This document shows, one piece after another, positions 2,253 through 3,396 of a DNA stretch of 14,711 bases. Position 1 is the first letter of the stretch. Each line of letters opens with the position of its first letter. This stretch comes from a virus. Lineage: Duplodnaviria > Heunggongvirae > Uroviricota > Caudoviricetes. The position numbers and the translations under genes are program-made. Under the pieces are notes generated by a model. The model saw only the letters and a list, made by a program, of their open reading frames with translations, made no database searches and was not told the origin of the DNA. Location of the stretch: positions 1-14,711 of the IMG/VR virus record IMGVR_UViG_2778261349_000009. The stretch is one strand, 5' to 3'.

Positions 2253-3080
2253 TTATTTAATCTGGATAAATGGTGTATTGGCACCACTGGTCATGTATTG
2301 CGGCAGTGTACCGTTCCACTTGTTGATGGCTTCCAGCTCCATGACGCCAGGGTTCTGGCGCAGAGCTTCGCCGCGTAAACGAATGGCATCGGCTTCTGCC
2401 AGGGCTTTTGTTCGAATGGCATCAGCCTGTCCGGCAGCTTCTGCACGTAGCATGTTGGCCTCCGCTTCACGTTGCTTGACTTCCTGTTCGCGCTGCAGGG
2501 TTTTCTGGTTTGCCGTGACTTTGGCGTTAATGCTGTCGATAACGGTTGGCGGGTATTCCGGTTTACCTACATAAGAGAGGCTCATTACCTGAATGCCGAT
2601 GGGTGACATCTCTTCCTGAATGTCTTTAAGTGCGGTATCCAGTAGTTCAGACTTGCCGCCGTCGATAAATTTGTCGGTGGTCATTTTGCTGGCCAGTCGA
2701 TTGAGTGCGTCGGCGATCTTCTGGCGCAGGTCAGTGGCGGTAATGTCATCCACGCCTTTGCGGTAGGTCTGAAACACCGTGGTAACTTTGGATGGATCAA
2801 CTTTGTAGGCAACACCGATGTGATAGCCGATGGTTGTGCCGTCACTCATCTGGAAGCTGAACGGCTCATCGTAGGTCTTCATTTGTTTGAAGGTTGGGAA
2901 GATGTAAACTTCAGTATTCCAGCCAGTCCAGTAGCGACCAACACCGACCACCTCACCGACGCCTTTATCGTCGCCCAGTTTATTTACTTTGATGCCAACA
3001 TTACCGGGTTCAACGCGATCGCAGCCGACAAGGCCAATGGTCGGCAGAACAATGGCTAAAGAAAAAATAATTTTTTTCAT
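2253..3080 (-). CDS. SPFH/band-7 (stomatin/prohibitin-like) domain lipoprotein
   Basis: 275-aa ORF. N-terminal signal peptide with lipobox (MKKIIFSLAIVLPTIGLVGC, L-V-G-C). Central SPFH-like fold signature and C-terminal Ala/Glu/Arg/Gln-rich coiled-coil (QREQEVKQREAEANMLRAEAAGQADAIRTKALAEADAIRLRGEA), as in HflK/C and flotillin-like proteins. Confidence 0.8.
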   Translation of the reverse strand: MKKIIFSLAIVLPTIGLVGCDRVEPGNVGIKVNKLGDDKGVGEVVGVGRYWTGWNTEVYIFPTFKQMKTYDEPFSFQMSDGTTIGYHIGVAYKVDPSKVTTVFQTYRKGVDDITATDLRQKIADALNRLASKMTTDKFIDGGKSELLDTALKDIQEEMSPIGIQVMSLSYVGKPEYPPTVIDSINAKVTANQKTLQREQEVKQREAEANMLRAEAAGQADAIRTKALAEADAIRLRGEALRQNPGVMELEAINKWNGTLPQYMTSGANTPFIQIK

Positions 3081-3265
3081 TTTTTATCCTTAGTGAAAGA
3101 AAGACCCTTGTAAATGGCATAAATGCAGGGCGGGGTCAGAAACGCCAGTGCAAAGCCAGAAATAACTGCTATCGTATCCTTCATGGATATAAGGAACGGA
3201 ACGAGTAATCCGTAAATGCATGCGATAATTGCCAGTAAAATTACTATTGTGAAATACAGTTTCAT
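3077..3265 (-). CDS. Small integral membrane protein (62 aa, two predicted TM helices)
   Basis: Hydrophobic ORF (MKLYFTIVILLAIIACIYGLLVPFLISMKDTIAVISGFALAFLTPPCIYAIY). Its stop overlaps the SPFH start (ATGA at 3077..3080), implying translational coupling. SD is weak. Confidence 0.5.
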   Translation of the reverse strand: MKLYFTIVILLAIIACIYGLLVPFLISMKDTIAVISGFALAFLTPPCIYAIYKGLSFTKDKK

Positions 3266-3288
3266 TGGTATGTGGTATCCCGATATTT

Positions 3289-3396
3289 TTAACTGACAGA
3301 CAGCGCAATAAAGAGAATAATGATTTCTGTTATTGTCAGTACTGTGGCAAGGATTAAAAGCAGTTTTACTCTGCTTAAGTCACGGTTGCTTTTCAT
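3289..3396 (-). CDS. Tiny single-TM peptide (35 aa), hypothetical
   Basis: Below the ORF-track length cutoff; found by hand translation of the minus strand: MKSNRDLSRVKLLLILATVLTITEIIILFIALSVS. Charged N-terminus plus one hydrophobic helix. Ends 23 nt upstream of the 62-aa membrane gene. No convincing SD. Confidence 0.25.
   Translation of the reverse strand: MKSNRDLSRVKLLLILATVLTITEIIILFIALSVS

Follow-up and report, generated by a model that had tools for sequence, protein, structure and literature searches.

An SPFH lipoprotein and a small membrane hairpin encoded as a coupled gene pair in an Stx2a prophage and in many other phages

SPFH proteins are found throughout life, and the role of their cages is still debated. 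In the HflK/HflC–FtsH system of Escherichia coli, the SPFH component is a tandem paralogous hetero-oligomer anchored by N-terminal transmembrane (TM) helices, and its operon also encodes a small two-TM protein, YjeT, downstream of hflC. In SPFH–NfeD operons (QmcA–YbbJ, PDB 8z5g; archaeal stomatin–STOPP), an SPFH scaffold and a dedicated co-directional membrane partner are encoded by overlapping, co-transcribed genes and work like a two-component membrane microdomain. Among phages, the Kayvirus SPFH protein MbpS adjoins the holin-like MbpV between the endolysin and tgl, and help with Sec export of Tgl has been hypothesised (PMC7150955). Here we analyze a 14,711-nucleotide stretch of Caudoviricetes DNA (IMG/VR record IMGVR_UViG_2778261349_000009; the whole stretch is called the window below), in which the gene for an SPFH lipoprotein overlaps the gene for a 62-amino-acid protein with two hydrophobic segments, its hairpin partner. 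The two genes form a conserved phage membrane module: they are coupled, nearly always adjacent and, in some lineages, fused.

The pair has direct homologues in phage N4, gp19 ('membrane protein'; PHROG 1130) and gp20 ('lipoprotein'; PHROG 200), which share its gene order, its gene overlap and a hairpin turn of the form P-x-[LIVA]-[IV]-S; in Shigella phage Moo19, the N4-like homologue of gp20 shares 63–64% identity with the SPFH protein of the window. N4 differs in being virulent, in carrying the pair in its left-hand early/middle region and in having Tyr instead of Asp after the lipidated Cys of gp20, and our literature searches found no published function for gp19 or gp20. Like HflK and HflC, which are its best sequence-level match in the PDB, the phage SPFH protein combines an SPFH domain with a long helix and is predicted to face the periplasm from the inner membrane. 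It differs from them in having a predicted lipid anchor rather than a TM helix and in sequence (22–25% identity over ~140 residues); moreover, there is one SPFH gene in the window and in all phage loci that we inspected, and the phage partner lies upstream and is unrelated to YjeT/DUF2065. The SPFH–NfeD operons resemble the pair in their overlapping, co-directional scaffold and partner genes, but the phage partner comes first in the operon and lacks both the NfeD OB fold and any similarity to YbbJ, and QmcA faces the cytoplasm whereas the phage SPFH protein has an export signal. MbpS, a distant homologue (22–24% identity), likewise lies beside a small membrane protein; Kayvirus differs in its Gram-positive host, in the single TM helix and other sequence of MbpV, and in the location of the genes in the lysis region.

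Both genes had thus already been catalogued (PHROG 200 and PHROG 1130). Full-text searches (phage SPFH, N4 gp19/gp20, CRISPRi-ART) found no functional study of the pair, only untested suggestions: genome papers propose a lysogeny role through HflB (PMC10269572; PMC4936722), and a 2026 N4-like phage genome paper states that the reason for the gene in the phage genome 'remains unclear' (PMC13239085). A 2009 survey of prokaryotic SPFH proteins left subfamilies 6–12 without documented members and did not mention phages (PMC2636767). What appears to be undescribed so far is the obligate, sometimes fused pairing with a hairpin that is not NfeD, the predicted lipid anchor and outward orientation of the phage SPFH protein, and the spread of the pair over virulent phages, temperate phages, phage-plasmids and some chromosomes. 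The pair amounts to a minimal, self-contained SPFH system, with one lipid-anchored scaffold and one 60-amino-acid hairpin.

The SPFH lipoprotein and its hairpin partner

The 275-amino-acid protein, labelled 'SPFH domain-containing protein' in RefSeq, matches Pfam Band_7 (PF01145) over residues 22–208 (E = 4e-31; 108.8 bits against a gathering cut-off of 23.6) and has a significant full-length match to phrog_200 ('lipoprotein'; E = 3e-112). Its N terminus reads MKKIIFSLAIVLPTIGLVGC, followed by Asp at position +2. In an alignment of the protein from six phages both G19 and C20 are invariant, and a lipobox-like motif is present in 204 of 213 unique SPFH homologues; the N-terminal membrane anchor is predicted to be a lipid. 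The Asp at +2 suggests retention in the inner membrane, a rule-based guess that applies to enterobacterial members only. The AlphaFold2 (AF2) model has a mean predicted local distance difference test (pLDDT) score of 73, with 80–93 in the core, and its 65-residue helix, which lines up with the helices of HflC, HflK and QmcA, corresponds to the coiled-coil wall of SPFH cages. Beyond this helix, residues A251, K254, W255, G257, P260, P270 and F271 of the C-terminal tail are invariant in the six-phage alignment. An earlier interpretation of the window from its letters alone (the sequence-only reading) had described an SPFH lipoprotein with an LVGC lipobox and a long C-terminal coiled coil, as the Band_7 match, Cys20 and the modelled helix bear out.

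Foldseek gave full-length matches of the model to prohibitin, HflK/C and erlin (E ~1e-12), stomatin (~1e-11), flotillin (~1e-8) and QmcA (~1e-6). At the sequence level, HflK and HflC gave the only PDB and NCBIfam matches, well under the family cut-offs: scores were 24 bits against an NCBIfam equivalog cut-off of 134.4 for HflC and 19.9 bits against 159.4 for HflK (cut-offs of 134–660 overall). Because hhalign of the SPFH family placed QmcA (82%, E = 1e-5) about as close as HflC (86%, E = 6e-6), we dropped the idea that the protein is closest to HflK/C specifically. By sequence it forms a subfamily of its own, with HflC and QmcA at roughly equal distance; it does not belong to the housekeeping HflK/QmcA lineage, which the earlier interpretation had named as a possibility that would count against it, and matches that lineage only distantly.

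The partner, annotated in RefSeq as hypothetical, combines two hydrophobic segments with a basic tail (KGLSFTKDKK), and its sole PHROG match is a full-length one to phrog_1130 ('membrane protein'; E = 2e-23). P23, in its conserved turn, is the sole residue that is invariant among 16 diverse partners. The distribution of Lys and Arg in 44 partner representatives (91 in the N terminus, 23 in the turn and 163 in the C terminus) predicts an N-in/C-in topology with the conserved turn in the periplasm. The partner had neither a Pfam nor a PDB match, the 16 diverse relatives had no Pfam match either, hhalign gave probabilities of 0.5% for NfeD-type YbbJ and 0.6% for YjeT/DUF2065, and a protein of 62 residues has no room for the OB fold of an NfeD domain. 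NfeD, YjeT/DUF2065 and all other Pfam and PDB families were therefore rejected as identities for the partner, in line with the earlier proposal that a minimal two-TM protein takes the place of NfeD. Both genes of the pair are under purifying selection, with dN/dS-like ratios of 0.06 for the SPFH gene (third codon positions account for 130 of its 160 variable sites) and 0.25 for the partner gene; these and the other dN/dS-like ratios below were calculated from 50 close relatives with the same upstream context as the window.

The ATGA overlap that joins the two genes, from which translational coupling had been proposed, is present in the window and common elsewhere. A small two-TM ORF with the common turn motif lay upstream of the SPFH gene, mostly overlapping it, in all of the first five phage genomes that we inspected. 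We ran a hidden Markov model (HMM) of the partner over 274 IMG/VR loci, the window and the first phage-database loci; 277 of these hold an SPFH ORF, and the partner was detected beside the SPFH gene in 264, with a 4-nucleotide overlap in 245 of the 264. Of the three-gene arrangement for which the sequence-only reading had proposed a search in other prophages, the hairpin and SPFH genes do recur, whereas the third part, an upstream 35-codon ORF, is restricted to one upstream context (see below). The one cluster of full-length genes that seemed to lack a partner (L109–117) encodes a divergent 64-amino-acid hairpin that shares the motif, again with an ATGA overlap between the genes, and the other misses were truncated or very distant SPFH genes. 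In a one-genome-per-species set the partner was present in 60 of 80 loci, from hosts that comprise Enterobacterales, Rhodanobacteraceae, Pseudomonas, Burkholderiales, Leptospira, Saprospirales, Flavobacterium, Dependentiae and one actinobacterium; its absence was mainly confined to a distant Bacteroidota subgroup and decayed copies. SPFH variants with an N-terminal TM helix in place of the lipobox still have the partner.

Two departures from the usual arrangement were observed. On Shigella flexneri and E. coli chromosomes (L282 and L283, ~3670–4000), the hairpin gene is gone and the SPFH gene is 95% identical; the sequence directly upstream of it, which we take to be the end of an IS1, suggests decay of the module by an IS1-like insertion. 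In rV5-like phages (PVP-SE1 gene 117, L004 2332–2496, and ~9 related loci), a 54-amino-acid soluble, charged ORF lies between the hairpin and SPFH genes, which are separated by 140–158 nucleotides instead of joined by an ATGA overlap.

Fusion of two genes is a classical sign that their products work as a single unit. An exhaustive HMMER search yielded clusters at 50% identity, 207 of them at E ≤1e-30 and 929 at E ≤1e-10, and among the best 150 cluster representatives 16 had an N-terminal extension that matched the partner HMM, with 2 more carrying a divergent two-TM extension. In the fusions, the hairpin (P-x-L-[IV]-S) leads through a basic linker to a third hydrophobic segment, which ends in a small residue and Cys and is followed by the SPFH domain. 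The four that we checked were all intact at the DNA level; three are in phage-like contigs, and the fourth is in a 1.1-kb contig that holds the gene alone. The predicted topology of the fusions (N-in, turn out, linker in, SPFH out) agrees with the positive-inside count of the free partners, which argues that the conserved turn faces the compartment predicted for the SPFH domain.

One fusion gene (L366 218–520; logan:SRR31638522_16550) lies amid small phage ORFs, two genes 3′ of a gene with an Acb2/Tad1-hairpin domain (an anti-CBASS/anti-Thoeris sponge), a hint that anti-defence or accessory early regions can house the module; another adjoins genes for a D5-type primase and RtcB. At the junction of the pair in the window (3077–3100), the coding strand reads A6-TG-A7. 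A 347-amino-acid E. coli fusion protein (P0002; 8 member sequences; 94-kb contig, a P1-like size; 91% identity) is exactly the fusion expected from one lost A in the equivalent A-run of an RCS47-type pair, and could reflect either a homopolymer sequencing error or real slippage that yields a fused product.

Distribution among phages, plasmids and chromosomes

Using tblastn, we found SPFH homologues in 742 phage records. Virulent carriers include N4-like phages, the rV5-like PVP-SE1 and the FelixO1-like phiEa21-4, and temperate carriers include Stx phages, the P1-like RCS47, Pseudomonas phage Ostro and Burkholderia phage phi1026b; distant SPFH homologues occur in Staphylococcus Kayvirus, phiCbK-like and jumbo phages. 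Of 612 plasmid records with an SPFH gene, 593 are non-mobilizable, mostly of 93–124 kb. We took a group at 91% identity to be P1-like and a group at 78–79% identity, which includes Yersinia pestis plasmids, to be SSU5-like phage-plasmids; the Y. pestis carriers are ~100-kb records consistent with pMT1. The pair has reached many bacterial phyla by way of phages. Tractable models that carry it are N4 (gp19/gp20), P1-like plasmids and lambdoid Stx phages, and its medically relevant carriers include Stx2a prophages of enterohemorrhagic E. coli and Y. pestis plasmids.

In RCS47 the pair (L002 2284–3328) occupies the slot, from upl to tRNA/ban, that in P1 holds the TerB-like tciA-tciB-tciC genes (L281 15234–15930). 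Although the tci genes have no sequence relationship to the pair, and their own function is inferred by homology, the shared slot suggests that the two are interchangeable envelope/stress accessory cassettes.

The pair is not exclusively phage-borne, as we had considered. In Dyella at least 16 genomes share synteny at the locus of the pair, which is flanked by genes for a BlaR1-type M56 peptidase, hemerythrin and ribonucleotide reductase, and this synteny and these neighbours place it outside a prophage. In D. halodurans (L298 976–3433) and the syntenic loci, the pair is divergent from the gene for the BlaR1-type M56 membrane peptidase, another arrangement of an SPFH gene beside a membrane protease; a 142-amino-acid ORF upstream of the peptidase gene has, by position alone, the place of a BlaI-like repressor.

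The sequence-only reading had placed the locus in a prophage accessory island and had suggested superinfection exclusion, abortive infection or modulation of host envelope proteases, the last of which stays among the rival explanations below. That the pair is a prophage-specific accessory is contradicted by its presence in virulent phages and in the Dyella locus, and the same occurrences weaken readings that depend on lysogeny, namely superinfection exclusion and abortive infection, as does the lack of a detectable promoter of its own. In addition, six proteins of the region had no match to the defence models of PADLOC-DB v2 at E up to 0.1, and we rejected a known anti-phage defence system on this basis. 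Together, the distribution and the lack of a PADLOC match speak for a general role at the membrane that phages call on in the course of infection.

Candidate roles at the inner membrane

Our best reading, which we lean toward as somewhat probable, is that the pair forms an SPFH cage on the periplasmic side, with the hairpin as its dedicated subunit, and that this cage, made early in lytic growth, conditions the inner membrane. By topology rules, the hairpin would span the inner membrane twice, its two ends cytoplasmic and its conserved turn periplasmic, and the SPFH protein would be exported, anchored by its lipid and turned toward the periplasm like HflK/C. If solved SPFH cages are a guide, many SPFH copies would assemble into an HflK/C-like ring or cage that fences off a patch of inner membrane together with the hairpins, at ~1:1. 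Judging from the position of the genes, the two proteins would be made after induction or infection, early in lytic growth. Their job, more speculatively, would be to condition the inner membrane of the infected cell: the membrane might be kept sealed and energised until programmed lysis, and/or membrane proteins might be kept from the quality-control machinery or proteases. Protecting a lysogen is a less likely role. A strongly selected early-region module in hundreds of phages is a concrete target, and its study could reveal a new host-membrane strategy or a general rule for SPFH cages.

The proposed timing draws on the setting of the pair in the window, at the int-proximal end of the leftward arm that runs from the repressor region to xis–int, on the repressor strand. 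Consensus scans found no excess of promoters or terminators over shuffled sequences around the module, although for promoters this was a crude search. The lack of a detectable promoter of its own and the position in the leftward arm make expression after induction likelier than expression in the lysogen; on this weak evidence, the pair is probably made with the early-left genes after induction or infection and not as an autonomous moron. A moron with its own terminator and promoter was rejected: the AT-rich hairpin with a T-run at ~3405–3430(−), 5′ of the 35-codon ORF, is weak and no stabler than those of shuffled sequences (−4.6 kcal/mol; z = −0.08), and promoter-like sites are no commoner than in shuffles.

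Several points weigh against our best reading. Cage assembly, contact between the partners and localisation are all inferred, and no result separates the physiological role that we propose from its rivals. The conserved C-terminal tail of the SPFH protein is poorly modelled (pLDDT <50), the residues after the lipidated Cys vary across the family (DR, SK, ER, DN), and the crude promoter scan leaves room for low-level expression in lysogens. A bolder version, possible but rather unlikely, is that phages from many families have a periplasmic SPFH nanocage of their own, with a built-in two-helix subunit, which would enclose a private patch of host inner membrane and would shield the infected cell from membrane-breaching events until the phage is ready, the threats being membrane-acting abortive-infection effectors, premature holin firing or entry of DNA from a superinfecting phage. 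If true, the pair would represent a new class of device for counter-defence or lysis timing in phages, as well as a minimal SPFH system that is simple to study by experiment.

Five rival explanations were weighed. Prohibitin, HflK/C and erlin all gate membrane proteolysis or endoplasmic-reticulum-associated degradation, and these exoplasm-facing cages are the top structural matches of the phage protein; with the restriction of sequence-level PDB and NCBIfam matches to HflK and HflC, and the same predicted orientation, this points to an HflK/C mimic whose periplasmic cage captures host FtsH or shields its substrates. Such a modulator would keep membrane proteins of the phage or host stable and, in temperate phages, also CII, CIII or Xis, and a role of this kind is the one suggested in genome papers (PMC10269572; PMC4936722). 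We consider it unlikely, since the scores fall far under the HflK/C family cut-offs, the cytoplasm-facing QmcA is as close as HflC, the SPFH gene stands alone instead of in a pair of the K/C type, and the module also occurs in virulent phages, which have no lysogeny decision to make. A block to incoming phage DNA at the envelope, by superinfection exclusion or otherwise and imposed by either a resident or a first-infecting phage, would suit the envelope location of the pair, which in N4-like phages follows a gene whose annotation notes similarity to P22 gp17, 'superinfection exclusion'. Exclusion proteins are known from virulent phages as well (T4 Imm and Sp), a precedent that makes the presence of the pair in lytic phages compatible with this role. 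Nevertheless, the PADLOC search was negative, the pair has a syntenic non-prophage copy in at least 16 Dyella genomes and no detected promoter of its own in the prophage, and its SPFH sequence is highly conserved among phages whose receptors and hosts are unrelated, an uncommon trait in exclusion factors; we regard this explanation as quite unlikely.

A role in lysis would make the hairpin a holin- or pinholin-like pore former that the SPFH cage restrains, or would have the cage organise export of lysis proteins. The partner does look like a holin (62 amino acids, two TM helices, N-in/C-in, and a charged C terminus with a family-wide excess of Lys and Arg), traits that are not specific to holins, and there is the neighbourhood of Kayvirus MbpS and MbpV, between endolysin and tgl (PMC7150955). 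N4 lysis inhibition is likewise still unexplained, but N4 lysis maps to gp60–63 (PMC12642591), not to gp19–gp20. The partner matches no holin PHROG, its gene sits in the early-left arm, far from the late region beyond Q and stx, and the Dyella copy has no lysis context, so we judge this role decidedly improbable. Far less probable is a toxin–antitoxin or abortive-infection pair, in which the SPFH protein would neutralise small hydrophobic membrane toxins. Tight coupling of small hydrophobic proteins to a larger partner and mosaic placement across prophage contexts would fit such a pair, but natural fusions fit subunits of one complex better than a toxin and its antidote, the Dyella synteny is vertical, both genes are under purifying selection, virulent phages included, the 35-codon ORF has no coding signal, and no PADLOC model was matched. 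We give equally little credence to a lysogenic-conversion lipoprotein that acts on the animal host as a TLR2 agonist or adhesin. Its precedent is PM0222, a prophage-encoded SPFH protein of Pasteurella multocida that was reported to be secreted in outer-membrane vesicles and to activate TLR1/2 (PMC9872710), the likeness being that of a prophage SPFH protein, and the phage in the window is a Shiga-toxin phage; however, virulent phages and environmental bacteria commonly carry the pair, and Asp at +2 speaks against display on the outer membrane or surface in E. coli.

The upstream ORF and the genomic setting

The sequence-only reading had counted a 35-amino-acid one-TM peptide, encoded upstream of the hairpin gene, as a third member of the module. 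This 35-codon ORF (Table 1) is preceded by no Shine–Dalgarno sequence and has no match in Pfam, PHROG, NCBIfam or Rfam, and chance ORFs are frequent in the region (49 of at least 25 amino acids within 3 kb). The module has at least four upstream contexts, and the ORF is limited to a single one of them (50 of 81 close loci); a tblastn search of phages with the ORF returned nothing, probably an effect of the low-complexity filter. Although it is intact in 49 of its 50 copies, its dN/dS-like ratio of 0.69 is no better than those of its other two frames, 0.64 and 1.29. With a single context and no purifying selection, we rejected it as a member: it lies outside the module and is probably not a gene, though some translation may occur. 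The best sigma-70-like match of the region (window 3293–3321 (+); CTGACA-17-AATAAT, 10/12) is antisense to this ORF, and its −35 spacing is lost in the commonest sequence variant. A type I toxin–antitoxin system around the ORF was rejected as well, there being no Rfam family and no conservation of the antisense promoter-like site.

Table 1. Features of the hairpin–SPFH locus and its surroundings in the window
Feature	Position	Strand	Basis or remark
int	75–1361	minus	annotated prophage record
xis	1395–1649	minus	annotated prophage record
DUF4222 remnant (truncated pseudogene)	1705–1809	minus	between xis and DUF5406
DUF5406	1841–2212	minus	SPFH gene, then 62-aa gene, next in map order
SPFH/Band-7 lipoprotein gene, 275 aa + stop	2253–3080	minus	ORF; PHROG 200; homologue of N4 gp20
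Conserved C-terminal tail, aa 243–275, A-[IV]-[NE]-K-W-[ND]-G-x-[LTM]-P	2256–2354	minus	six-phage alignment
Long Ala/Glu/Gln/Arg-rich helix, aa 178–242	2355–2549	minus	AF2 secondary structure
SPFH domain proper, aa 22–208	2457–3017	minus	Pfam envelope; AF2 alpha/beta, core pLDDT 80–93
Predicted lipoprotein signal peptide, aa 1–20, lipobox LVGC	3021–3080	minus	Cys20 codon 3021–3023; read from sequence
ATGA overlap, partner TGA/SPFH ATG	3077–3080	minus	plus strand reads tcat; translational coupling
Two-TM hairpin partner gene, 62 aa	3077–3265	minus	ORF; PHROG 1130; homologue of N4 gp19
Shine–Dalgarno AAGGA for SPFH gene, inside partner gene end	3087–3091	minus	six bases upstream of start; read from sequence
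Partner turn motif P23-F-L-I-S-M-K-D-T31	3173–3199	minus	family consensus P-x-L-[IV]-S, 46 clusters
35-codon ORF, one hydrophobic stretch, doubtful	3289–3396	minus	ORF; unannotated in RefSeq and GenBank
190-aa protein, PHROG 1515 (E = 6e-92)	3450–4022	minus	directly upstream of module
HTH regulator	4614–5306	minus	
CI-like repressor	5454–6143	minus	

The placement of the locus in a prophage, as first proposed, is confirmed by annotation: the region is 100% identical to the Stx2a prophage that adjoins mlrA in E. coli 00-3076, and related sequence is present in 537 of 5,426 complete E. coli genomes. The 190-amino-acid protein encoded directly upstream has no Pfam family, and the linkage of its gene to the module does not extend to the other upstream contexts; small minus-strand ORFs lie between it and the helix–turn–helix (HTH) regulator gene in map order. 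Rightward of the repressor, the plus strand carries a cro-like gene, replication genes, Q and stx2a, and an intact DUF4222 gene of the same prophage lies in this rightward early region (7342–7518). At the other end of the window, positions 1–39 are the annotated start of the mlrA coding sequence (minus strand; annotated MlrA of 228 amino acids) and directly adjoin the prophage integrase gene; mlrA (yehV) is a known integration site of Stx phages and affects curli regulation.

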